A stretch of DNA of 64,000 bases from positions 10,323 to 74,322 of the IMG/VR virus record IMGVR_UViG_3300023180_000042; one strand, written 5' to 3'. Every line of letters begins with the position of its first letter. Position 1 is the stretch's first letter. Source of the stretch: a virus. The notes beneath the pieces were generated by a model that did no database searches, was not told the origin of the DNA, and saw only the letters and a list, made by a program, of their open reading frames with translations. The translations under genes were made by a program, and so were the position numbers. Of this stretch, positions 666-13,600 are shown in pieces.

Positions 666-898
666 TGAGCAGATATGTACCTGTGAAGGGGCACTCTGGC
701 TTAGTTCGTGACACATATTCCAACGCATTGATTAACACCAATGCTCAGGAGATCGAACAAGCCAGAGAGCGTAAACGCCTCCGTCAACTTGAAAAAGCCC
801 AAAAACAATCACTTGAACAAAAGGTAGAGACTATCGAAAAGGATCTGGATGAAATAAAAAGTATGTTGAAAGACTTGATCCACAATTCTTATAAATAA
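665..898 (+). CDS. Small conserved phage protein with C-terminal coiled coil
   Basis: VKGHSGLVRD..SNALIN motif followed by a heptad-like C-terminus; start overlaps the upstream stop. Confidence 0.7.
   Translation: MSRYVPVKGHSGLVRDTYSNALINTNAQEIEQARERKRLRQLEKAQKQSLEQKVETIEKDLDEIKSMLKDLIHNSYK
890..897 (+). promoter_or_regulatory. T4-type late promoter for the giant fibre cluster
   Basis: TATAAATA 33 nt upstream of ATG 931; gp55 is present in the window. Confidence 0.8.
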
Positions 899-930: not shown

Positions 931-3900
931 ATGTCTTATCGTCCTCTCAAACACTTAAATGAAGGTGCGTTCAAAGAGCTACTGACTTCTGAAGAAGACT
1001 ATCTGGCTTATCGAGCGGGTGTTCATTTAAGTAAAATGACAACAAGTGATTTGTCTGCGCTTTCTACTAACGCGGCAGGCGAACTTGTTGGTACGTTTGA
1101 AGACACTTTTTATACCTCTGGTCTAGGTCCCATTCCTGGCTCGACAATTACTCGCACAATTGCGATTACTCATGCATCTGATCCTGCTGGATCAACGCAC
1201 ACTTCTACGTTTGGTGCTTTCACGCCTTTACCCACTGTTGTTTATGTGGGAGACACAATTGAACTAACAATTCAAGGCACAGCGACAAACACAGGCATTG
1301 GATTTGAAGAGATTGAATATCAGTTAGGTATTTCTGGTAGCGCGGCTATAGGAACTATTACTACGACTCCTTCGCCAGCGGCAACGAGTACGAGTGCAAA
1401 CGGTCGAGAAGTATCGTGGGAAAATTATCCTGACGGCAATCTTAGCGGTTCTTATCAAGTCACGTGGTCTATTCCGATTACCGATGATGGCGTAATCAAC
1501 TTCACACTCAACGGTACTACTACTGATTTTCAAAACAGTGTTGTAAGTTCTACCGATGCTGAAGTGCTACCTTCTGTTCGTGTAGAGCCACAGTTGAAGC
1601 CAACTACTTCGGCTACACTGTATGAATTATATCAGAACGATGCGAATGTAGCAACCATCGACAACGACAATGCTCTAAAAAGAAATCCACTCTATTGGGA
1701 TCGAACTGCAACGCCTGCTGGCTTGAAAGAAATGAGCGATGCAGAACTCGATATTGTAGTTCAAAGACTTCTTTTAAAAATCTTTGCAAACGATCTTCCC
1801 GGTCAGTATCGCCTTGCTACAGTATCTCCGGGCGCACAGTGGTCAGAGTTTATCGCAGATGTATTTGAAGACACTCGTGGTGACGGTTCACTTGTTACTT
1901 ATTCTATCTGGGTCAAAACAACCGCAACAGTTCCGACAGTAGTTAAACCTATTTCGCCTTTACGTCAACCGTTGACTAACAAGTTTCAAGGTATAAAGGA
2001 TCTTAATGATTTAGAACTTGAAATGACTTTCGGCGAACGAATGAAGCAGGTTATTCAAGACACTGGCATTGGTAAGTATCAACTTCGATCTTCTGCTGAC
2101 GGACCACCTACAGATCCAGGTACGTGGGAAGCACGTGGTAGTGCAATCGATACAAACCTAACTTACGAATCTGAAACGGCTTATATTTCAACCGATTCGT
2201 ATGATATTAACTACGCTTCGCAGTATCAAGGTTCATATGTTCCTGATTACATAGGCGAGTACATTGACACATACGAATCCAACTATCTTGGTGAATACGG
2301 CGCTACTTATACATCATCTTATACTGGCAATTACGAGGCTACGTACATCGGTACGTTTAGTGGTGATTACGCGCAGAGTTATATAGGCGATTATCTTCTT
2401 GAGTACGCTCAATCTTATGAGAGTGGTTATGAAGGTGAATATGTTCCCAATTATTCGGGTCTTACTGTTGAAGAGCAGTACACGACCATTTACGAAGCTG
2501 AGGACGCGATTGAATTTTATGCGTCAGCATACGCAGAACTTTATGGTGATCTTCCTGTAATTTATACGGGCAACTATGTTACTCAGTACGTCGAGGAAGT
2601 TTATACAGGTAACTTTACGGAACTGTATGTCGGCGATTACGTCATAGACTATAGTGGTAACTTTACAGAAAATTACATCGATGATGTCTATACAGGTAAC
2701 TATATTGACGTATACACTGGCGACTACACAGAAAATTATGAAGGCAACTTTACCGTTAACTATATTCAAACTGAATATGCCGGTAACTTTACACAGCCGT
2801 ACACTGGTGATTTTACAGCCGCATACTCTACGTCTTATGCAGTTACTTACGCACAAGAAAACTATACTGGTAACTATCAATCAGATTATGCTTCTGAATA
2901 TCAAGTGCCTTACACAGGCGACTTCTTAGCCACTTATATTCAGTTGATTTACGGTGGTAATTTCATCGAACAATACAGCGGTGACTTTACTGCAACTTAT
3001 GCGGGCAACTTTACCGAAACTTATACTCAAGCCCAATATACTGGTAACTACTTGTCACAGTACGCTGGCAACTATCAGTCTGATTATTCTGGCGATTATA
3101 TTGGAACTTATGAGCAACAGACTTACACGGGTAACTATATTTCTGATTACACGGGTAACTATCAGTCTCAGTATTCTGGTGACTTTACTGCCACTTATGC
3201 TCAAGCACAATACACAGGTGACTTCATTGTAAGTTACTCTGGTGACTTTATTGCTACATTCCAAGGACAGTATGAAGGCAATTATCAGTCTCAATACACT
3301 GGTAACTTCTTACAGGACTATACTGGTAACTTTATTCAAGGTTTTGAAGGACAATATCAAGGTAACTATCAAGTCAACTATGACGGTAATTACATTTCGG
3401 ACTATGTTACTGCTAGTTACACAGGCGACTTCTTGGCTGTTTATTCGGGCAACTTTGTAGAAACGTTCGAAGGTCAGTACACTGGTAACTATCTTTCGAC
3501 GTATGCTGGCAACTATACTTCAGATTACGTCGGCGATTTTGTTCAGACATTCCAAGGGCAATATGTCACTGTTTACGAAGAGCCGTATACCGGTAACTTT
3601 GTAAACACATTTATTTCTGCTGACTATACAGGCGATTACATCTCGCAATACGAGAGTAATTTCTTGCAAGCGTATTCTGGTAATTACGTCTCACTTTATG
3701 TGCAAGCCAACTATACTGGCAACTTCGCGGCTCAATATACTGGCGACTTTACCGCAAACTATCAAGGCGATTTTCTAACTACATTCGTTGATGCGAACTA
3801 CACTGGTAACTATGCTTCGGATTATGTTCGTGCGTCTTATACCGGTAACTTCCTAGCCACATATTCTGGCGATTTTCTTGCCTCTTATACCGGTGACTTT

Positions 3901-6900
3901 GTTACAACGTTCGTTGATGCGAACTATACTGGTAACTATGTTAGTCAATATTTGGGGACTCGGAATGTAACTTATTCGGGTAACTACATTTCGAATTACG
4001 CACAGGCGAACTATACGGGTAACTTCCTTGCAACATTCGTTGATGCAAACTACACAGGCAACTTCCTAGTAACTTATGCTGGCGACTTTACTGCTACATT
4101 CCAAGGGCAGTATCAAGGTGACTATGAGTCGGGCTATGCTGGCTCATTCGTCGCTCGATATACTGGTGACTTCTTAGGAACATTCCAGGGTCAATATGTT
4201 GGTGATTTCTTAGCCAACTATGATGGCAACTTTATTGCAAATTACGCTGGCGACTTCCTTGCTACGTTCCAAGGGCAGTATGTTGGTGACTATGTTGGTC
4301 AGTATACAAGACAAATCAACGTAGGCTATACAGGAAGCTTTCTGGCGACATTCCAGGGACAGTACACAGGTTCGTTTTCTCAAACTTATGTAGGGACTTA
4401 CACAGGCACATATGTCGGTAACTACACTGGTACATATGTCGGAAACTATGCTGGTGCTTATGTATCGGCGGCAGCCACTTATCAAGGTGGCTACGCCGGT
4501 GCTGCCGCTTGGACATCGTACTTCTTCAGTCTTAGTTCTCCTCGTTATTACTGGTATACGACACAAGCAAGATTTGCTTTTCCCGTAAACCGTTGGTTTT
4601 ATTGGAATAATTCATTTCAATCATTGGCGAGCATTGCCAATGACGGATTAGTTCCCTTTTTTAGTCGCGGTTTTGAATATGAAGCGGGTACCATACAATA
4701 TCAGACAGGATCGTCTTTAAGCACTCTCCGCAACTATTACAATATCAGACGCCGGTCAATTTTTGGTGGCTCAACATACACTGGCGGATATACCGGCGGT
4801 GGCGGCACTTATACAGGAACATATGTTGGTTCGATTCAGCAAACCTATACTGGCTCGATTCAACAGTCGTACGATGGTAATTATATTGGCTCTGTTAACA
4901 TAACATTCGTTGACGCAAACTATACTGGTGACTATCTTGGTCAGTATATACGAGCAATTAATCAAAGTTACACAAGTGTGTTCCAACAAACATTCGTTGA
5001 TGCAAACTACACTGGTAACTTTATTGTTAATTATTCAGGCGATTATGTTTCTCGTTATACGGGCAACTTCCTTGCAACGTTCGTTGATGCAAACTACTCT
5101 GGTAACTTCTTAGCGACATATACCGGCAACTATACTGGTGTATATGTTGGTAGCTTCCTTGCAACGTTTGTTGATGCAAACTATGTGGGTAACTATGTTT
5201 CGAACTATACCGGTGACTTCTTAGGAACGTTCCAGGGTCAGTACGTTGGTGATTTCTTAGCAACATTCCAAGGTCAGTATCAAGGCGATTTTATTGCGAA
5301 CTACGTTGCAACGTTCGAACAAAATTACACTGGTGACTTCCTTGCTACGTTCCAAGGCCAGTATCTGGGTAACTTTGTAACGCCTTATACTGGCAACTAT
5401 ATTTCAAATTATGCTGGCGACTTTACGGCGGCGTATACTGGAAACTATGTTGGCGATTTCTTAGCCACGTTCCAGGGACAATATCTGGGTAACTTTACTG
5501 TACAATATACCGGTAATTATCTGAGTCAATATACTTCTGATTTCTTAGCCACGTTCCAGGGACAGTATGTCGGTGATTACATTTCGAACTATAATGCAGA
5601 CTTCAATACTCAGTATCAGTCAAACTTTACGGCAACGTTCCAGGGTCAGTACATTGGTGATTTCTTAGCAACATACACTGGCACTTATGACACAATATAT
5701 GTTCAAGCCGACTACACTGGTAACTTCGTCACAACATACAGTGGTGATTATATCTCTGATTACACCGGTGACTTTACTGCCAACTTCGTTTCACAGCAAT
5801 ACACTGGTGATTATATCTCTGATTACACTGGTAACTTTGCAGTAACGTATACTGGTAATTATCTCGGCGATTACGTTTCGCGATACACTGGCGACTACGT
5901 TGGAAATTACGCCGATCAAGTGTACGGTGGTGACTTTACTCAAGTCTATACTGGCGACTTTACGAATAACTACGTTGGCGATTATATTTCTACATACGCT
6001 CAAGCAGATTATTCTGGTAACTACGTATCAAATTATCAGGGTAACTTCACGGCGCAGTTCGAAGGTCAATACGTAGGCAACTTCTTAGAAGATTATACGG
6101 GCGACTTTACAGCTATTTACTCTGGTGACTTCCTTCAAGGATTTGCTGGTCAATACGAAGGTAATTATATTACTCCGTATACCGGTGATTATATTTCAGC
6201 CTATACTGGTGATTTTCTTGCAACGTTTGAAGGTCAATATGTTGGCGATTTCATCGTACAATACACTGGTAACTTCATCGAAACTTATGAAGCAGACTTC
6301 GTACAAGATTTTGAAGGTCAGTATACTGGTAACTATCAGTCTGACTATACTGGCGATTATGTCGCAATTTATACTGGTGACTTCTTACAGATTTTCCAAG
6401 GGCAATATGTCGGCGATTACGTAAAAGCATATATCGGCAATTATCAGTCAGCCTATACGGGCGATTTCGTATCGATATTTGAAGGTCAGTACACCGGTGA
6501 TTATCTGTCTGATTACACTGGTAACTATCAAGCAAATTATTCAGGCGACTATCTGTCTAACTTCGAAGGTCAGTACACTGGTGACTTTATCGTAACATAC
6601 ACAGGCAATTACGAAGTAGACTACACGGGCGACTTTGTTGAATCATACACCCAAGATTATGAGCAAGACTACATAGAAGATTATGTTGCTCAAGAAGCAT
6701 ACGTAACGGCTTATGCTGGAAACTACACTCCAACATACGAAACAGTTTATACTGGTGATTATACTCCTGATTACGAAGGTCCATCGGGCGACTATTTAGG
6801 AACCTATCTTTCGAATTACACTGAAGAGTTGTATGCGCAAGAGTTTACGGTTGACTACATATCATTAGACTATACGAGAAATCGCGAAGAAAGTTACACT

Positions 6901-7173
6901 GGTGATTCTTATATAGAAACGTACACAACTGATTTCGAATCAAGTACTGATTACGCCACTTATTTGGGCGGTGATGATAATGAAGAATATGTAGGAACAT
7001 TTGAGGGCGCGGGAGATGCAGAAGTTTATGGTGGTTCTCCTTATGAAGGATCTAGTTACGTATCTGATTACAATCGAGTAGTTACCATCGCAGAAGCATA
7101 TTTGGATGACGCTAAATTAACATCAACACCAGTAACAATTGAGACATTTACATTATACGTACGTGTTGCTTAA
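931..7173 (+). CDS. Giant Tyr/Phe tetrad-repeat protein; putative self-complementary beta-hairpin fibre with central tip domain
   Basis: 2080 aa: ~410-aa N-terminal base, ~1640 aa with Y/F every 4th residue, and a unique central domain at aa 1194-1282. Late promoter; lies among virion genes. Confidence 0.75.
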   Translation: MSYRPLKHLNEGAFKELLTSEEDYLAYRAGVHLSKMTTSDLSALSTNAAGELVGTFEDTFYTSGLGPIPGSTITRTIAITHASDPAGSTHTSTFGAFTPLPTVVYVGDTIELTIQGTATNTGIGFEEIEYQLGISGSAAIGTITTTPSPAATSTSANGREVSWENYPDGNLSGSYQVTWSIPITDDGVINFTLNGTTTDFQNSVVSSTDAEVLPSVRVEPQLKPTTSATLYELYQNDANVATIDNDNALKRNPLYWDRTATPAGLKEMSDAELDIVVQRLLLKIFANDLPGQYRLATVSPGAQWSEFIADVFEDTRGDGSLVTYSIWVKTTATVPTVVKPISPLRQPLTNKFQGIKDLNDLELEMTFGERMKQVIQDTGIGKYQLRSSADGPPTDPGTWEARGSAIDTNLTYESETAYISTDSYDINYASQYQGSYVPDYIGEYIDTYESNYLGEYGATYTSSYTGNYEATYIGTFSGDYAQSYIGDYLLEYAQSYESGYEGEYVPNYSGLTVEEQYTTIYEAEDAIEFYASAYAELYGDLPVIYTGNYVTQYVEEVYTGNFTELYVGDYVIDYSGNFTENYIDDVYTGNYIDVYTGDYTENYEGNFTVNYIQTEYAGNFTQPYTGDFTAAYSTSYAVTYAQENYTGNYQSDYASEYQVPYTGDFLATYIQLIYGGNFIEQYSGDFTATYAGNFTETYTQAQYTGNYLSQYAGNYQSDYSGDYIGTYEQQTYTGNYISDYTGNYQSQYSGDFTATYAQAQYTGDFIVSYSGDFIATFQGQYEGNYQSQYTGNFLQDYTGNFIQGFEGQYQGNYQVNYDGNYISDYVTASYTGDFLAVYSGNFVETFEGQYTGNYLSTYAGNYTSDYVGDFVQTFQGQYVTVYEEPYTGNFVNTFISADYTGDYISQYESNFLQAYSGNYVSLYVQANYTGNFAAQYTGDFTANYQGDFLTTFVDANYTGNYASDYVRASYTGNFLATYSGDFLASYTGDFVTTFVDANYTGNYVSQYLGTRNVTYSGNYISNYAQANYTGNFLATFVDANYTGNFLVTYAGDFTATFQGQYQGDYESGYAGSFVARYTGDFLGTFQGQYVGDFLANYDGNFIANYAGDFLATFQGQYVGDYVGQYTRQINVGYTGSFLATFQGQYTGSFSQTYVGTYTGTYVGNYTGTYVGNYAGAYVSAAATYQGGYAGAAAWTSYFFSLSSPRYYWYTTQARFAFPVNRWFYWNNSFQSLASIANDGLVPFFSRGFEYEAGTIQYQTGSSLSTLRNYYNIRRRSIFGGSTYTGGYTGGGGTYTGTYVGSIQQTYTGSIQQSYDGNYIGSVNITFVDANYTGDYLGQYIRAINQSYTSVFQQTFVDANYTGNFIVNYSGDYVSRYTGNFLATFVDANYSGNFLATYTGNYTGVYVGSFLATFVDANYVGNYVSNYTGDFLGTFQGQYVGDFLATFQGQYQGDFIANYVATFEQNYTGDFLATFQGQYLGNFVTPYTGNYISNYAGDFTAAYTGNYVGDFLATFQGQYLGNFTVQYTGNYLSQYTSDFLATFQGQYVGDYISNYNADFNTQYQSNFTATFQGQYIGDFLATYTGTYDTIYVQADYTGNFVTTYSGDYISDYTGDFTANFVSQQYTGDYISDYTGNFAVTYTGNYLGDYVSRYTGDYVGNYADQVYGGDFTQVYTGDFTNNYVGDYISTYAQADYSGNYVSNYQGNFTAQFEGQYVGNFLEDYTGDFTAIYSGDFLQGFAGQYEGNYITPYTGDYISAYTGDFLATFEGQYVGDFIVQYTGNFIETYEADFVQDFEGQYTGNYQSDYTGDYVAIYTGDFLQIFQGQYVGDYVKAYIGNYQSAYTGDFVSIFEGQYTGDYLSDYTGNYQANYSGDYLSNFEGQYTGDFIVTYTGNYEVDYTGDFVESYTQDYEQDYIEDYVAQEAYVTAYAGNYTPTYETVYTGDYTPDYEGPSGDYLGTYLSNYTEELYAQEFTVDYISLDYTRNREESYTGDSYIETYTTDFESSTDYATYLGGDDNEEYVGTFEGAGDAEVYGGSPYEGSSYVSDYNRVVTIAEAYLDDAKLTSTPVTIETFTLYVRVA
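2164..7070 (+). repeat. Coding tetrad repeat array ([YF]xG[DN] alternating with [YF]xxx), punctuated by 5-aa bulges and FxGQ units
   Basis: Direct parse of the translation. DNA repeats are degenerate, with some exact copies, e.g. GATTTCTTAGCCACGTTCCAGGGACA at 5455 and 5539. Confidence 0.95.
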
Positions 7174-7188
7174 AATATGGAGTAAATT

Positions 7189-7668
7189 ATGGCAAAGTAT
7201 GAGTACTTAGATAATGCATTTTGGGAAGCAGAAGATCGCTCAATCGTAAAATGCATTAGGCTAACTACGCTTGAAGGTCAAGAAGGCAAGAAGAAAAAAG
7301 ACGTTATGGAGTTTCGCAAGATTCGTCCTGATGGCTCTGAATGCCCTCACTATAAAGAAGTGGTAACAAAAGTAGGCATTCCAAAGATTGATGAGAATAC
7401 TGCTGAACGTAAAGAAAGAAAAGAGCGTGAAGTAAGAGAAAAACGCGCTCATCACGAGCAAAAGAAAAAGACTGCTGAACTAGAGCAACTTTTCAATCTT
7501 AAGCTTCAAGCCTTTGAAATTGAAGAGATTAAAAATTCTGAAGATCGTGTATTACGTGGCAAGATTCGTAGAGCGCAAAATGTAGTAGAAATGAATGCGT
7601 TGTGTGCAGTTTTGATCGCAAAAGAATTGGGCTATTATGGAGACAAAGATGACGCAGGAGCCAACTAA
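7189..7668 (+). CDS. Basic, helical hypothetical protein; possible fibre assembly chaperone
   Basis: GGAG RBS; K/E/R-rich; immediately downstream of the giant gene. Function inferred from position only. Confidence 0.5.
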   Translation: MAKYEYLDNAFWEAEDRSIVKCIRLTTLEGQEGKKKKDVMEFRKIRPDGSECPHYKEVVTKVGIPKIDENTAERKERKEREVREKRAHHEQKKKTAELEQLFNLKLQAFEIEEIKNSEDRVLRGKIRRAQNVVEMNALCAVLIAKELGYYGDKDDAGAN

Positions 7669-8386
7669 GGGTTACGTAATCGTTGCGTCACGGCGAAGTT
7701 TCTTTTATGTGTCTGCACTTAATTTGATGGAATCAATTCGCGATTTTTATCCTGATGCAAATATCTGTCTAGTCTGTGAAGAAAAGTTTCTTGATGATCG
7801 AGGACGAAAACTCGCCAACGAAATAATTTTCTGTAACGATCACAAGCGAGCCAAACTTTGGGGCATGGCAAAGTCTCCATGGGATATTACATTCTATATT
7901 GACGCAGACACAGAAGTCGAGCATGAAGACATTGAACATGTCTTTGGCGAACTGAATGGCTATGATGTCATGTACACTGGTCTTCCCGAAGAACGTTCTT
8001 ACTGTTATGCAGAACTGAAGTTTCCTGGTGGTCAATTCGAACTGTGTGGGGCAGTGTGTCTGTATGACATGCGCAATCCATTAGTGCGCGAGTTTATGTG
8101 GGACTGGTATGATCTGACTGTTCAACAATACGCAGGCACTTGGTGGCCACAGAAAGAAGATGGAACAGAAGATACTGAATTATATCCTGCAACGTTGAAG
8201 CGTTGGGATCAATTCTCTCTTTGGTGGCTTGTAAACAAAGAGCCCAAGTATCAAGACTTGAAAGTGGGTATCTTTGAAGATGACGCCAGATGGAACTATT
8301 TTTCACGCTATAAATATGCTCACAACAAGAAGCCTGTTGTTATTAGACATTATTCTGCTTCTGAAGCGAAGCATATGGAGTTTTGA
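7649..8386 (+). CDS. GT-A fold glycosyltransferase
   Basis: N-terminal GYVIVA strand, DxD motif FYIDADT, later WDQ..L and C-terminal VIRHY motifs as in GT8-like enzymes. GGAG precedes ATG 7649. Confidence 0.75.
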   Translation: MTQEPTKGYVIVASRRSFFYVSALNLMESIRDFYPDANICLVCEEKFLDDRGRKLANEIIFCNDHKRAKLWGMAKSPWDITFYIDADTEVEHEDIEHVFGELNGYDVMYTGLPEERSYCYAELKFPGGQFELCGAVCLYDMRNPLVREFMWDWYDLTVQQYAGTWWPQKEDGTEDTELYPATLKRWDQFSLWWLVNKEPKYQDLKVGIFEDDARWNYFSRYKYAHNKKPVVIRHYSASEAKHMEF

Positions 8387-9063
8387 TGAGAGATATTCCA
8401 CTTAACGATTTTGCATTAGACATCTTAGATGATGCGCTTTGGTTCACTCAAGACAAGAACTATGAGACTGTTGTGCTAACAAAGAAAGATAAGCACACCA
8501 AAGAAGATGCTGACTGGTATACCGGCGAAGCATACTTCAAACAAATTATGGCGCAAGGTACAGGTCATAATGGATTTCCAGAAATTGTGGTATCTCATGG
8601 TTTTGGCATTGGTCAAATGCATTTCTCTAAAGAGAGAACTTCGCAGGCAAGAATTCCTGAAGTCTCTATGAAACAGGATGCGTTTTTGCAAAAAATACAA
8701 ACTACGTTCAATTTGAAACGTAATGCTCTATTTGCGGTTTATCCGCCAGGTGGTTACATTTCTTGGCACAACAATGCGAATGCTTCTGCATTCAACTGCG
8801 TCTTTACTTGGAGCGAAACCGGCGATGGTTGGTGGAAGCACTGGGATAATGAAAAGAAAGAAATGGTAACGATACCTGATAAGAAAGGCTGGCAATGTAA
8901 AGTTGGTTACTTTGGTGCGTACGAAGATCCTGCCGAAAAGCTAGTGTATCACACAGCACGAAATGGCGACACAGGTTTACGCATGACAGTTGCATTTGTG
9001 CTTGACAGATCAGAGATGGCTATAGGAATGCAAGATTGGATTATTGAAGATATTCACGCCTAA
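8386..9063 (+). CDS. 2OG-Fe(II) oxygenase-like (double-stranded beta-helix) protein
   Basis: YPPGGYISWHNN, distal VYHTA and R-x-T-VAF. HxN replaces canonical HxD. TGATG-coupled to the glycosyltransferase. Confidence 0.6.
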   Translation: MRDIPLNDFALDILDDALWFTQDKNYETVVLTKKDKHTKEDADWYTGEAYFKQIMAQGTGHNGFPEIVVSHGFGIGQMHFSKERTSQARIPEVSMKQDAFLQKIQTTFNLKRNALFAVYPPGGYISWHNNANASAFNCVFTWSETGDGWWKHWDNEKKEMVTIPDKKGWQCKVGYFGAYEDPAEKLVYHTARNGDTGLRMTVAFVLDRSEMAIGMQDWIIEDIHA

Positions 9064-9068
9064 ATTAT

Positions 9069-9076
9069 TATAAATA
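9069..9076 (+). promoter_or_regulatory. T4-type late promoter
   Basis: Intergenic TATAAATA. Confidence 0.8.
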
Positions 9077-9110
9077 GAGCCATAAGATTCATTTTTTAGG
9101 TTAGAGACTT

Positions 9111-9464
9111 ATGGCAAGGTATGAAGAATTAACTATCGATCAGGGAACAGATGTTTCTCTTGACGTGTATCTTACGAACATCGATGGTTCACCAAAAGAT
9201 TTGTCTGGCTATTCAGCCGCGGCTAAAATGAGTACGCGGTATGACGTTGATAGCTCAGATAAAATCTCTTTCGACGCTTATGTCACTGTCCCTCCAACTG
9301 CCGGCATTGTTAACTTATCTTTGACAAACACCGTCACAGATACGCTAAATAGTAAAAGAAAATATGTTTACGATATGGAAATTTCATATCAAGACAGCGA
9401 TGCCAACACTATCGTAGAAAGAGTTCTTGAAGGACTTATAACAGTAACGCCTTCGGTAACATGA
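9111..9464 (+). CDS. Small beta-sandwich virion/baseplate adaptor protein
   Basis: IDQG.D...DLSGY.A...YVYD.EI...RVLEG.ITVTPSVT pattern typical of marine myovirus structural adaptors. Confidence 0.65.
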   Translation: MARYEELTIDQGTDVSLDVYLTNIDGSPKDLSGYSAAAKMSTRYDVDSSDKISFDAYVTVPPTAGIVNLSLTNTVTDTLNSKRKYVYDMEISYQDSDANTIVERVLEGLITVTPSVT

Positions 9465-9471
9465 GGTCAGT

Positions 9472-10623
9472 ATGTCAGTACAAGTAGGAAACAGGACATT
9501 AGTAAGCAAGATAACGTACGGTACACCTTATCGTACTGCTGTCATTTCTGCTAGTGCCGACATTGATGCAATCACAGGTCTTGTCACATCAGGTGCAGTA
9601 GACGGCTCTCTCTTTGAATACGACTCAGCGTCAGGCAACTGGAAAGCCACGTTAACACTTCGAAAGCAGATTATCGATGGTCGTGTTTATCCGTCTGACT
9701 CAGATCGTGCACAGATTCTTATTCGGCGCTCGGGCACTCAGGGCGATCCACTTGTTTTAAGAACAGGTGAATTAGCATACTCATATCTTTCAGACTCTGG
9801 TAGTTCCGCAGACGGCTTCGGCTTAGGCGGTGATCGTCTGTTTATTGGTGCTGGCGGCGATTCGTCAGTTGCGGGTGTACTACAAGCAGAGCGCATCGAT
9901 GTAATCGGTGGTAAGTATTTTACTGATCTACTGAATCATCCACATGGTGTGCTAACTGCTTCTAGTGCGATTATAACAGACTCCGAAGGTAAAGTCAATA
10001 CTTTAAAAGCTGGCTCGCTAGAACTAGACAGTGCTACGCTGGGTAGACTGGCGGTATCTGATTCTGCAATCTTTAACGATCTGCAAGTTCTTGGCACACA
10101 AACCATTGTAGAAATTATTGCTGATCGTATCAACGTTGACAACCTCACTGTTGATAGTAGTCTGAGTGTTCTAGGACTAGCCTCGTTCAACGACAGTGCA
10201 ACCTTTGCTGGTAAAATTACTGTAAGTGGTGCTGGTGTATTTGATGATACACTCGATGTAGCAGGACTTACCACACTCGATTCTGCTGTTATAAACAATC
10301 TGAGGGTTGATTCTAGCCTTGAAATTCCTGGCTCATTGACCATTGCAGGCACTACTACGTTTGACTCTACTGCAACGTTCAATGGTGAAGTCAACATTGG
10401 CGAAAGAACACTAAGCGAGTTTATTGATAGCGATGTGTTCCAATTGTTACGTGCAGGTCAGGCTATCATCTTAACATATGCAGATGATAGTGACAAATTA
10501 ACGATTTCAGTTCCAACAGCTACGGCTAATACACCTGGAGTTGCGTTCTTCGACTCAGCGCAGTTCACTGTCGATTCAAACGGTCAGGTTTCATTGCTGG
10601 AATTTGAAGGCGGTGACTTTTAA
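9472..10623 (+). CDS. Tail-fibre-like virion protein, Asp-Ser rich
   Basis: GELAYS/DRLFIG...VIGGKYFTDLL fibre motif and beta-rich repeats; 16 DS dipeptides. Confidence 0.65.
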   Translation: MSVQVGNRTLVSKITYGTPYRTAVISASADIDAITGLVTSGAVDGSLFEYDSASGNWKATLTLRKQIIDGRVYPSDSDRAQILIRRSGTQGDPLVLRTGELAYSYLSDSGSSADGFGLGGDRLFIGAGGDSSVAGVLQAERIDVIGGKYFTDLLNHPHGVLTASSAIITDSEGKVNTLKAGSLELDSATLGRLAVSDSAIFNDLQVLGTQTIVEIIADRINVDNLTVDSSLSVLGLASFNDSATFAGKITVSGAGVFDDTLDVAGLTTLDSAVINNLRVDSSLEIPGSLTIAGTTTFDSTATFNGEVNIGERTLSEFIDSDVFQLLRAGQAIILTYADDSDKLTISVPTATANTPGVAFFDSAQFTVDSNGQVSLLEFEGGDF

Positions 10624-10658
10624 TAAATAGAACAATATCGGTAGGATAGAGACTTAAC

Positions 10659-13600
10659 ATGGCAATAACAAAAATTATCCATAAAAAGACGAGTGTCCCG
10701 GAGAAACGTCCGGGCATCGCCGATATCGAGCTTGGTGAAATTGCGATCAATACGTTTGATGGCAAGATGTTCATCAAACAAGATAGAAATGGTGAGGTTG
10801 ACATTGTTCAAGTCGGTGACGATCCTACACCCAACGTATACTATGTTTCTAAATCAGGTAAGAATGGAAACTTAGGTACGTCTCTTTCTGATGCATTCCG
10901 CACAATTGACTCTGCTGTCGATCTTATCACAACACTCAAAGATTTTGATTTTGACGAAGGTATTTGTCGAAGAGACTTGGGTCTCATTCTTGATGGTCTA
11001 CAGTTTGATATTGCTTTTGGAACAAACTATAACGCAGTAACGTCTGGTCTCGCATATCAAAGAGGCAGTGTAAGTGCGGTCAAAGTTATTGAAGAGCAAA
11101 TCGTTGCTACACGAAGTGCATTCAACGAAGCAAAGGGTGCTATCGCTTCCCTAGATCCTGTTAAAGCAAGCACTGGCGATGATGGTGCACTTGCAAGAAA
11201 TGCTAGACACTGGGCAGAGGTTGTTGATATTCTTGTCAACGGAACGCAAAGCACAGAAAACTTTGCTGACTCTATCGAATATCCAGTTCCTGTTGTTCTG
11301 CCTACAGCAGACGCAGATGATGCGGCTGTCATTCTACAGAACAACCGTGAGTATCTAAAGAACGAATTAGTCCAGTACATTGCAGAGAACTTCCCTGCTC
11401 TTACTTATGACCGAGACTTGTGTTCGCGTGACACAGGATACATCATCGATGCTGTAACGCTCGATTTGATGCTCGGTACAAACTTCAACTCCGTCACTGC
11501 GGGCTCTGCATATTATAGAGGAAATGCATCTGCGCAGTTGGTGATCAGTGATCAGCTAGAAGGAACAGTTGGTGCAATCAACGAATTAGGTCGTTTGATT
11601 GGCGAACTTGCCATCGACTCTGATTCTCGGGTAAATGTTACAAGCAGTATTGCAGAGATTACTGACATTATTAGCAACGGTCTTGATGGTGCTGATGCGT
11701 TTACTTATCCTGCGGCTCCTGCATCTACAGCAAATCAACAAACAGCCGCTACTGCAATTCAGTCTAATCGAACAGCAATCATCAACTCGACGATTGCTTG
11801 GATCGACAGTAACTATCCAGCATTGTCTTACAACTCTGCTACTTGTGGTCGTGACGTAGGATTTGTACTTGACGGCTTGACACACGATATTCTCTATGGT
11901 GGTAACTATCAGTCTCGTAGAAGTGCTGATGCATACTTCTCTAATGCTGTAAGTCAGTTGGGCGATTCTGAAACATTACCTACTGTTGCGGCATATGACG
12001 AACTAAAGAACATCGTCAACACTTATGTCACAACTTCAACAGAGCAAGCCCGTGTCAACGACTTGATCGAAATTGTAAACGAAGTTCTTGAAGCCGGTAA
12101 TGTTGCTGTACTCAGACCTCTCGTTTATCCAAACTTTACAGGTATTGACGGCACAACAACTGCATCTTACAATTTGATTCTAGCCGACTCTGCTAATCTT
12201 AAAGCGGGCGTGATTGCATATGCCGATCAGAATGGTCCTGCAACGTATGATCGTGTTCGCTGTAAGCGAGACGTTGGTTTCATCGTAGACGGCTTGACAT
12301 TTGACGTTCTGTATGGTGGTAACTTTGCGAGCGATATTGTTGCACGTGCATACTTCTCGTTTGGCACAAATCAGTTGGGAGACAGTGCTTCTGATCCTGA
12401 AGTTGTCGCGACAGTATCGACTTATCAGCACCTGAAGCAGATTGTTGACGAATTGCTTTCTAACAGCCTGTCTTCTAATTTGTACGAGCAAGGAACTTGG
12501 CCAGGTGCTGGTGTTGGTCCTGACTCTTCTGGTAATGGCGGTAACTACTCTACTGCAACTGAAGCGCAGGTCACAAATGACTTGCTAGACAATTTGATCA
12601 CTGTTATTACAGAGGGAAGTCTTGCCAGTATCGATTCTGTACAAGAGCCTAGCCTTGCGGCTCGTGCTGTTCCTATCGAGTTAAGAAACGCTGTTCAGTC
12701 TATTAACGACGAACGAAACCTCATTATTACTCAATCAGTACAGCGAGCGCAAGCTACAAATGATATTACAATTTATCTCAAGTCGGGTGATTATGTAATT
12801 AATAACCCAATTCAGCTACCTGAGAAGGTTGCTATCGTGGGCGACAACTTGAGAACAACGACGATTCGTCCGTTTAGCGTAGACTCTGATTTGTTCTATG
12901 TGAGAAGCGGATGTTTCTTGAAAGACATTACGTTCCGAGATCATCAAAGCGGAGCGGCTTGCGTAGCATTTAACCCGAACGTTGACTCGCCAAGAGCAGG
13001 TCCGTTTATTGTACAGTCTCCTTACGTACAGAACTGTACGTCGATTACTACTGACGGTATTGGTATGAAGATCGACGGTTCGAAATGTTGGGGTCTGCGT
13101 TCGATGGTATCTGACGCATTCACTCAGTACAACGCGGCTGGTACTGGCGTATATCTACTCAATCGTGGTTATGCGCAGTTGGTATCGATCTTTACGATTT
13201 CGACTGCAACATCTATTCTTGCTGAAACTGGTGGTCAGTGTTCTATCACTAACTCTAACACCAGCTTTGGTGACTTTGGTCTTATCGCACGAGGTAGTAG
13301 CCCAGTTCTTTACTCTGGTATTCTCGACTCTGATTATGCCAAGTTTGATGATGTGATGCAAGTGAATGAGATTATTAATCTTGATTCGGCAGACTGGCTA
13401 AATCCATACGGCGAGTATAAGAAGCCGAACTATGGTGATGCGATAAAGTTTGACTCAGAAGATTACTATTACACATGTCTTGGCGTCGATTCAGTTGCAC
13501 CTGGTGTTTATAACATCACATTCCAGCCACCGTTGAACCAAGACATGAGACGTAATCAGAAAATTAGTTTTGTTCAACGTTCTGTTATCACATCATCTTC

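Follow-up and report, generated by a model that had tools for sequence, protein, structure and literature searches.

A probable phage fibre with both chain ends in a three-unit base and one hairpin extended into a long aromatic repeat array

The chain of a phage fibre normally starts in the anchor at its N-terminus and ends in the receptor-binding tip at its C-terminus. His-x-His iron sites are found in the needle of the T4 protein gp37. At the tip of the long tail fibre, three gp37 chains contribute the six antiparallel strands of this needle, and the receptor-binding head is placed midway along the segment and not at the chain end (Bartual et al. 2010, summarised in PMC9659904). A hyper-extended hairpin is known from the MABP domain of perforin-2, where it serves as a contact element (PMC7593815). 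Here a gene is described from a stretch of 64,000 nucleotides (the window; positions 10,323 to 74,322 of IMG/VR record IMGVR_UViG_3300023180_000042, a 74-kb viral contig with an estimated completeness of 41%). The gene encodes a protein of 2080 amino acids (aa), P0001, from an uncultured marine myovirus of the T4-like type, in which it is very probably a virion fibre expressed late. The protein has a base of three units, the third hairpin of which is stretched into a repeat array.

Both the gp37 needle and the fibre protein follow an out-and-back chain path. In gp37, a conventional N-to-C fibre, only a final part of about 215 residues folds back, whereas in the fibre protein the whole stalk is folded back and both termini lie in the base. 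No sequence similarity to gp37 was found for the array or the tip, nor any PHROG, Pfam or PDB sequence match. In its model the base resembles the small prism-like MABP domains of perforin-2 (MPEG1 P2, 6sb1) and MVB12B (3tow) and to the C-terminal domains of Plu-MACPF (2qp2) and Mp2Ba1 (8b6v). The fibre base differs from the MABP domains in having no sequence relation to them (no Pfam and no PDB sequence match) and in the presence of a helix in each unit. The hairpin of the fibre family is 87-3760 residues long, compared to a few tens in MABP proteins, and the host proteins of MABP-type domains are eukaryotic or bacterial membrane-binding proteins, in contrast to a predicted part of a virion.

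The original prediction, made from the window alone, described three related base units with a repeat array placed in a loop of the third. All motifs quoted in it occur once each in the open reading frame (ORF) and are given in the lines below, together with the secondary structure from a model of aa 1-415. The base would consist of aa 1-410 and the last 15 residues. Each unit is predicted to end in a hairpin, in which a strand ending in DT is followed by a (Y/F)x(L/I)(Y/W) strand.

931..7173, + strand: fibre gene (P0001), 2080 aa, one open frame.
931..1125, + strand: unit 1, first part, aa 1-65, starting with PLKHLNEGAFKELLTSEE (aa 5-22); model strands 6-10 and 13-16, helix 19-34 and strand 51-65, ending FEDTF (aa 56-60).
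1126..1599, + strand: immunoglobulin-like (Ig-like) beta-sandwich domain in hairpin 1, aa 66-223, all-beta in the model.
1600..1650, + strand: unit 1 closing strand, aa 224-240, with TLYELYQ (aa 229-235); model strand 224-235, aligned with YNIYQR of unit 2.
1678..1926, + strand: unit 2, aa 250-332, starting with PLYWDRTATPAGLKEMSDAE (aa 253-272), with the short-turn string FEDTRGDGSLVTYSIWVK (aa 312-329) and, by model and loop counts, a 5-aa turn, RGDGS; model strands 254-257 and 264-267, helix 270-286, strands 293-296, 304-315 and 321-329.
1942..2160, + strand: unit 3, first part, aa 338-410, starting with PLRQPLTNKFQGIKDLNDLE (aa 343-362) and ending in the GSAIDT strand (AIDTNL, aa 405-410), from model and profiles; model strands 340-345 and 352-357, helix 360-378.
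2161..4338, + strand: outgoing arm, aa 411-1136, in which every fourth residue is aromatic.
4339..4713, + strand: non-repeat turn or tip, aa ~1137-1261, in which the period of 4 is lost; no match in Pfam or PHROG.
4714..7125, + strand: returning arm, aa 1262-2065, mirror-complementary to the outgoing arm.
7126..7170, + strand: unit 3 closing strand, aa 2066-2080, ending in PVTIETFTLYVRVA and containing TFTLYVRV (aa 2072-2079), identified from the C-terminal logo, the alignment to unit 2 and a model of a short relative, P0038.

An exhaustive phmmer search with aa 1-415, at a cut-off of E <= 0.001, resulted in 299 representatives. E-values ranged from 1e-161 to 1e-22 for the 150 listed. All members were from metagenomes or viral contigs, none had a functional name or a Pfam family, and in most of them the base was about 255 aa. 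Hairpin loops were measured in 165 sequences with four sub-profiles derived from A1, an alignment of 49 complete short members. Sub-profiles were used since hmmalign with the joined base-plus-closure model left long inserts unaligned. The loops differed strongly in their tolerance of length:

Loop 1: 10-15 aa (mode 13) in 109 of 159 sequences and 120-200 aa in 30; 164 aa in P0001.
Loop 2: exactly 5 aa in 135 of 161 sequences, maximum 13 aa; 5 aa in P0001.
Loop 3: 87-3760 aa, median 476 aa, in 108 complete representatives; 1650 aa in P0001.

At the sub-profile boundaries the three loops of P0001 thus have the sizes that had been predicted for them. The view of the base as a scaffold for variable loop inserts was also borne out, as loop 2 is fixed, while loop 1 varies from the usual 13 aa up to 287 aa (276-287 aa in P0020 and P0030) and holds inserts without BLASTP similarity to that of P0001 in three relatives. 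A search with the base recovered homologues with loop-1 and loop-3 inserts of different lengths, but the short loop-3 turn that had also been sought was absent from all 108 complete representatives. The array is therefore best regarded as an ancestral, founding feature of the family and not, as first proposed, as an insertion particular to P0001. Its placement in the third loop was correct; it is not a separate domain dropped into that loop, but prolongs both strands of hairpin 3.

The three base units were found to be homologous on the basis of their sequences. With the single sequence of P0001, Smith-Waterman comparison of units 2 and 3 gave a z of 6.8, clearly above chance, units 1 and 2 were marginal (z 2.7), and the similarity of units 1 and 3 was not significant. 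Profile-profile comparison of the unit slices of A1 gave 85% for units 1 and 2 (P 6e-6, 70 columns), with TTLYQ aligned with YNIYQR, and 83-86% for units 1 and 3. Units 2 and 3 gave 94.7% without the closing strand (score 41.2, 47 columns) and 96% with it (P 4.5e-9, score 47.9, 74 columns). TIETYTLYVR of the closure aligned on TS..YNIYQR, the last strand of unit 2. The self-similarity that had been claimed for the units is thus significant by family profile comparison.

The closing strand is near-invariant. It forms the C-terminal end in 102 of the 108 complete representatives, in which the motif lies 4 residues from the C-terminus, and the logo of these sequences, each of which represents a cluster at 50% identity, showed E.88, T.99, Y.98, T 1.00, L.99, Y 1.00, V.88 and R.96. 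There was nearly no conservation in the array right before it. P0001 has the family closure pattern [IL]ET[YF]TLY as IETFTLY (aa 2070-2076), with F at the Y position as a rare variant. The peptide pattern alone retrieved 218 IMG/VR stretches, 192 of which encode relatives. In a few members the closing strand is internal and is followed by 25 aa (the P0010 clade), 272 aa (P0030) or 412 aa (P0020). It is kept with 25-412 residues after it, and must therefore be more than a terminal tag. An extra C-terminal domain can hang from the base in some relatives, for example aa 1823-2238 of P0020.

AlphaFold2 models were made of P0038 (404 aa, alignment A1), a natural short relative, and of P0001 aa 1-415 (A2). 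The predicted local distance difference test (pLDDT) score of the P0038 model was 89-98 for residues 1-260 and 381-404. Each unit was modelled as strand-strand-helix-(strand)-hairpin. The sole long strands were 242-272 and 370-402, which leave and re-enter unit 3, and the C-terminal strand had a pLDDT of 97-98. The model of P0001 aa 1-415 had a mean pLDDT of 92.7. Unit 3 was without its final strands in this model, as expected if the missing C-terminal strand is the partner. A complex prediction of aa 240-425 with aa 2046-2080, run without alignments and with no controls, scored 0.02 and is evidence neither way.

The most likely packing of the three units is a pseudo-threefold, beta-prism-like domain. 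When the P0038 model was compared with 48,161 chains using VIA-align, the top four rows were all beta-prism domains (8b6v, 2qp2, 3tow and 6sb1), with about 115-120 aligned residues, a root-mean-square deviation (rmsd) of 3.6-6.1 over model residues 40-404 and Z-scores of 6.9-4.9, the highest of which lies in a range rated middling by VIA-align. The next row had a Z of 2.8. Three homologous units and a beta-prism resemblance fit each other. Such Z-scores may reflect a common arrangement only, and the likeness is therefore considered a resemblance and not a membership. Residues 219-404 of the P0038 model also gave weak rows with two baseplate proteins, T4 gp11 and the Klebsiella phage baseplate cup chain 9f4b_FD (Z 2.6). 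gp11 (1el6) is located at the interface to the short tail fibre; its row (Z 2.8, 48 aligned residues, 29% identity) is too weak to count, and no sequence relation between gp11 and the fibre protein was found.

The beta-rich insert of about 150 aa predicted in unit 1 was all-beta and Ig-like in the model. Its fold is that of a beta-sandwich, with 13 chains at Z >= 8 in VIA-align. The insert (aa ~85-221) is most like pilin, adhesin and cohesin sandwiches, the best with a Z of 9.3, an rmsd of 2.7 and 118 aligned residues. BspA (4z1p), BcpA (3kpt) and RrgB (2x9w) spanned a Z of 9.3-8.2 and an rmsd of 2.7-3.0 with about 120 aligned residues. Identity to these sandwiches was 6-10% only and, unlike the pilin and adhesin domains, the insert sits within a hairpin that belongs to another domain. 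BLASTP detected no similarity to it in P0068, P0149 and P0020, which have long loop-1 inserts of their own, and hairpin 1 is thus occupied by different domains depending on the lineage.

The array between the DT strand and the closing strand is strictly periodic. Aromatic residues were spaced by exactly 4 positions in 314 of 389 cases and by 5 in 31. Irregular units continue past the tip to about aa 1320. At the DNA level the array is almost without tandem repeats, so the period of 4 is kept at the protein level, by selection and not by recent duplication. The pairing of the stem was studied by corrected mutual information, for which 195 non-identical sequences were anchored at both DT and the closing strand. 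The first 28 residues that follow DT were compared with the last 28 ahead of the closure, and covariation followed the antidiagonal with peaks at offsets +2, +4 and +6, and its value was reached by none of 5000 column permutations. The lower covariation at odd offsets is as expected for paired beta-strands. Further out, two special types, F[QE]GQ units and units of five residues, are interspersed among the four-residue units of the arms. When both arms are counted from the tip, with the register shifted by a constant 13-14 units, a special unit of one type in the outgoing arm meets one of the other type in the returning arm in 19 of 24 cases. Direct order gave a best score of 12 and matching of like types one of 9, and the highest score among 2000 shuffles was 12. 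The signal was seen only with unit types; in the residue-level aromatic correlation between the arms the mirror orientation was not above the direct one. Locating the tip across relatives by the longest irregular stretch was too noisy for a test of arm equality (r 0.60).

The same aromatic period-4 array was observed in a second protein of the window. P0273 (22928-26209, + strand; 1093 aa) has an N-terminal subtilase domain (PF00082, E 5e-27) and the array in its C-terminal part, with no three-unit base. Near its C-terminus a domain matches phrog_677 (baseplate wedge tail fibre connector) and, judged by its residues, may resemble a blue-copper site (Cys..His..Met in YYICQYHSGM).

Both termini of the fibre protein lie in the base, and the array is the continuation of hairpin 3. 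The three-repeat base with a C-terminal return, as put forward in the original prediction, is supported: the conservation of the closing strand, its retention where it is internal, its confidence in the P0038 model and the covariation all agree with a C-terminal strand that completes unit 3 by pairing with the AIDT strand. In the proposed architecture, hairpin 2 would keep a fixed 5-residue turn, hairpin 1 would carry the Ig-like, adhesin-type domain in the P0001 lineage, and hairpin 3 would be stretched by 1650 residues. The chain would run out along the aromatic arm to a non-repeat tip in the middle of the sequence and back along the mirror-complementary arm, and IETFTLYVRVA would close unit 3. 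With both chain ends in the base, the distal end falls mid-chain. The array would act as a stalk with its length set by the size of loop 3. For a flat ribbon, upper-bound arithmetic (720-780 residues at about 0.33 nm per residue) gives an arm of at most about 250 nm in P0001. The stalk could be one ribbon of two strands, or three hairpins could form a bundle. Contacts to the host surface would be made by the tip and the Ig-like domain.

Several observations weigh against this architecture. The two arms are 722 and 779 aa, a difference of about 8%, and their five-residue steps do not coincide, so that a strict residue-by-residue ribbon would need bulges. P0273 has an array of this kind but neither this base nor a return arm of equal length, which shows that the repeat can exist outside a symmetric hairpin. 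The pLDDT in the middle of the P0038 array was below 40, and the three-dimensional form of the stalk is not given by the model. The strand pairing was deduced from strand lengths, confidence and covariation and not read from coordinates. Regarding the fold of the base, the middling Z-score counts in the same direction, as does Foldseek, in which the P0038 model had no match in PDB or BFVD at E <= 0.001.

Completion of unit 3 by the C-terminal strand of a neighbouring chain, with the fibre as a strand-exchange oligomer, is an improbable alternative. The monomer model cannot separate a swapped strand from the protein's own, phage fibres are usually trimers, and the gp37 needle itself combines antiparallel strands of three chains (PMC9659904). 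Mirror-complementary arms with a central tip fit a chain that returns to its own start. Moreover, the stem covariation would require swapped chains to be antiparallel with their bases together, which amounts to the same topology. We consider it highly unlikely that the C-terminal motif is instead a signal for assembly, chaperone docking or cleavage, forming no strand of unit 3, and that the likeness of the units is superficial. The near-constant distance of the motif from the C-terminus would suit such a signal, and so would the failure of P0001 alone to relate units 1 and 3. A signal of this kind does not account for a motif that is kept when internal, that aligns column by column with the last strand of unit 2 and raises the score of units 2 and 3, that is modelled with high confidence in P0038, and without which the P0001 base forms no final unit-3 strands.

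There is also little likelihood, slightly more than for a terminal signal, that the array is not a stalk but a compact or amyloid-like body, or mainly a substrate of the neighbouring enzymes. The low model confidence at the centre of the array and the conservation of transferase-like and cupin-like neighbours would be compatible with this. A linear, extensible element agrees better than a globule with an array that keeps a strict period of 4 for about 1500 residues, has arms in mirror register and varies 40-fold in length while the base stays unchanged. The stalk with its own closing strand is the preferred reading.

The assignment to the virion was based on the surroundings of the gene, which include the following features:

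890..897, + strand: T4-type late promoter motif TATAAATA, 34 nt 5' of the fibre start codon.
7189..9063, + strand: three downstream genes (159, 249 and 226 aa), conserved beside the fibre family gene.

TATAAATA was found 13 times in the window, where 2.7 matches are expected. Twelve of the 13 sites are on the + strand, and several are located directly 5' of ORF starts; the sites include 890, 9069, 19250 and 36615. This excess, strand bias and placement are consistent with T4-type late promoters. Located 5' of the fibre gene are a gp25-like gene, a gp6-like gene, a phrog_438 baseplate wedge gene and the gene for a phrog_358 protein of 1823 aa, and on the 3' side a tail-fibre-assembly-like gene, tail-fibre genes and a T4 neck protein. 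Flanked by wedge and fibre genes and preceded by the late promoter motif, the gene is assigned to the late structural genes of a T4-like myovirus, within the block for baseplate and fibres. It occupies the part of the genome where T4 has gp9-gp12. From its position after the baseplate wedge genes, the base would be expected to dock at the baseplate region.

L006 shows the same succession, from the wedge gene through the phrog_358 giant and the family member to the three small genes. The three downstream genes had 37-45% identity to the genes in the same position beside the 430-aa family member there (9310-12523), and ORFs of the same sizes follow the family gene in L035. The family gene thus has conserved neighbours on both sides, the three small genes 3' and the baseplate wedge and phrog_358 genes 5'. 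No Pfam match was obtained for the three downstream proteins. The 249-aa protein has a DAD motif, as in some glycosyltransferases, and the 226-aa protein a WHNNANA stretch. L006 additionally has two phrog_1962 glycosyltransferase-like genes. In L035 (5826-11856) the family match (8001-9627) spans the border of two ORFs (5826-8438 and 8449-11856), which may result from an assembly error, a frameshift or a fusion. In the window, an ORF of 77 aa (665-898, + strand) is located between the phrog_358 giant and the fibre gene; it is rich in Lys, Glu and Gln, and its stop codon overlaps the late promoter motif. In phage C48C1 a 76-aa 'virion structural protein' is located immediately after its large hypothetical protein.

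Searches of Pfam and PHROG with the whole protein, the base, the tip and P0038 gave no family, and at E <= 0.1 there was no Pfam family for the base and P0038. The P0038 array had a marginal match to phrog_23509 (E 0.007). Compared with PDB sequences, the family profile reached a best E of 1.2, which is not significant, and the array segment a best E of 0.14. Matches in the ESM Atlas were unnamed viral clusters only. Megablast against GenBank phages gave no match, and in a protein search of the same phages the sole member was encoded by a coding sequence of 10044 bp in Phage C48C1 (Kyanoviridae), annotated as a hypothetical protein. Literature searches gave no description of the family. Tentaclins (PMC10743442) were considered and are unrelated to it. 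The protein is thus a fibre design without a described or solved relative, in a family without a Pfam, PHROG or PDB sequence relative.

A broader proposal, which could equally well hold or fail, is that a family of marine T4-like phages builds its fibre from one polypeptide hairpin of about 90 to about 3800 residues, on a four-residue aromatic ladder with a receptor-binding tip in mid-chain. In this proposal a second hairpin displays unrelated adhesin domains, and the stalk is perhaps modified by the accompanying transferase-like and cupin-like enzymes. If true, a fibre of a single hairpin would mean that long protein rods can be built on a new structural principle. As a scaffold, the base is compact, is modelled with confidence and tolerates 13-287 aa in one hairpin and 87-3760 aa in another, and with these variable hairpins it is a natural example of a length-tunable rod design. 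At 381-404 aa, the short members are within reach of structure determination. Hundreds of metagenomic proteins would gain an annotation from one solved structure, as the family has no relative in Pfam, PHROG or PDB. With both ends in the anchor and the tip in mid-chain, the site at which host-range determinants should be searched for would change in widespread uncultured marine phages.

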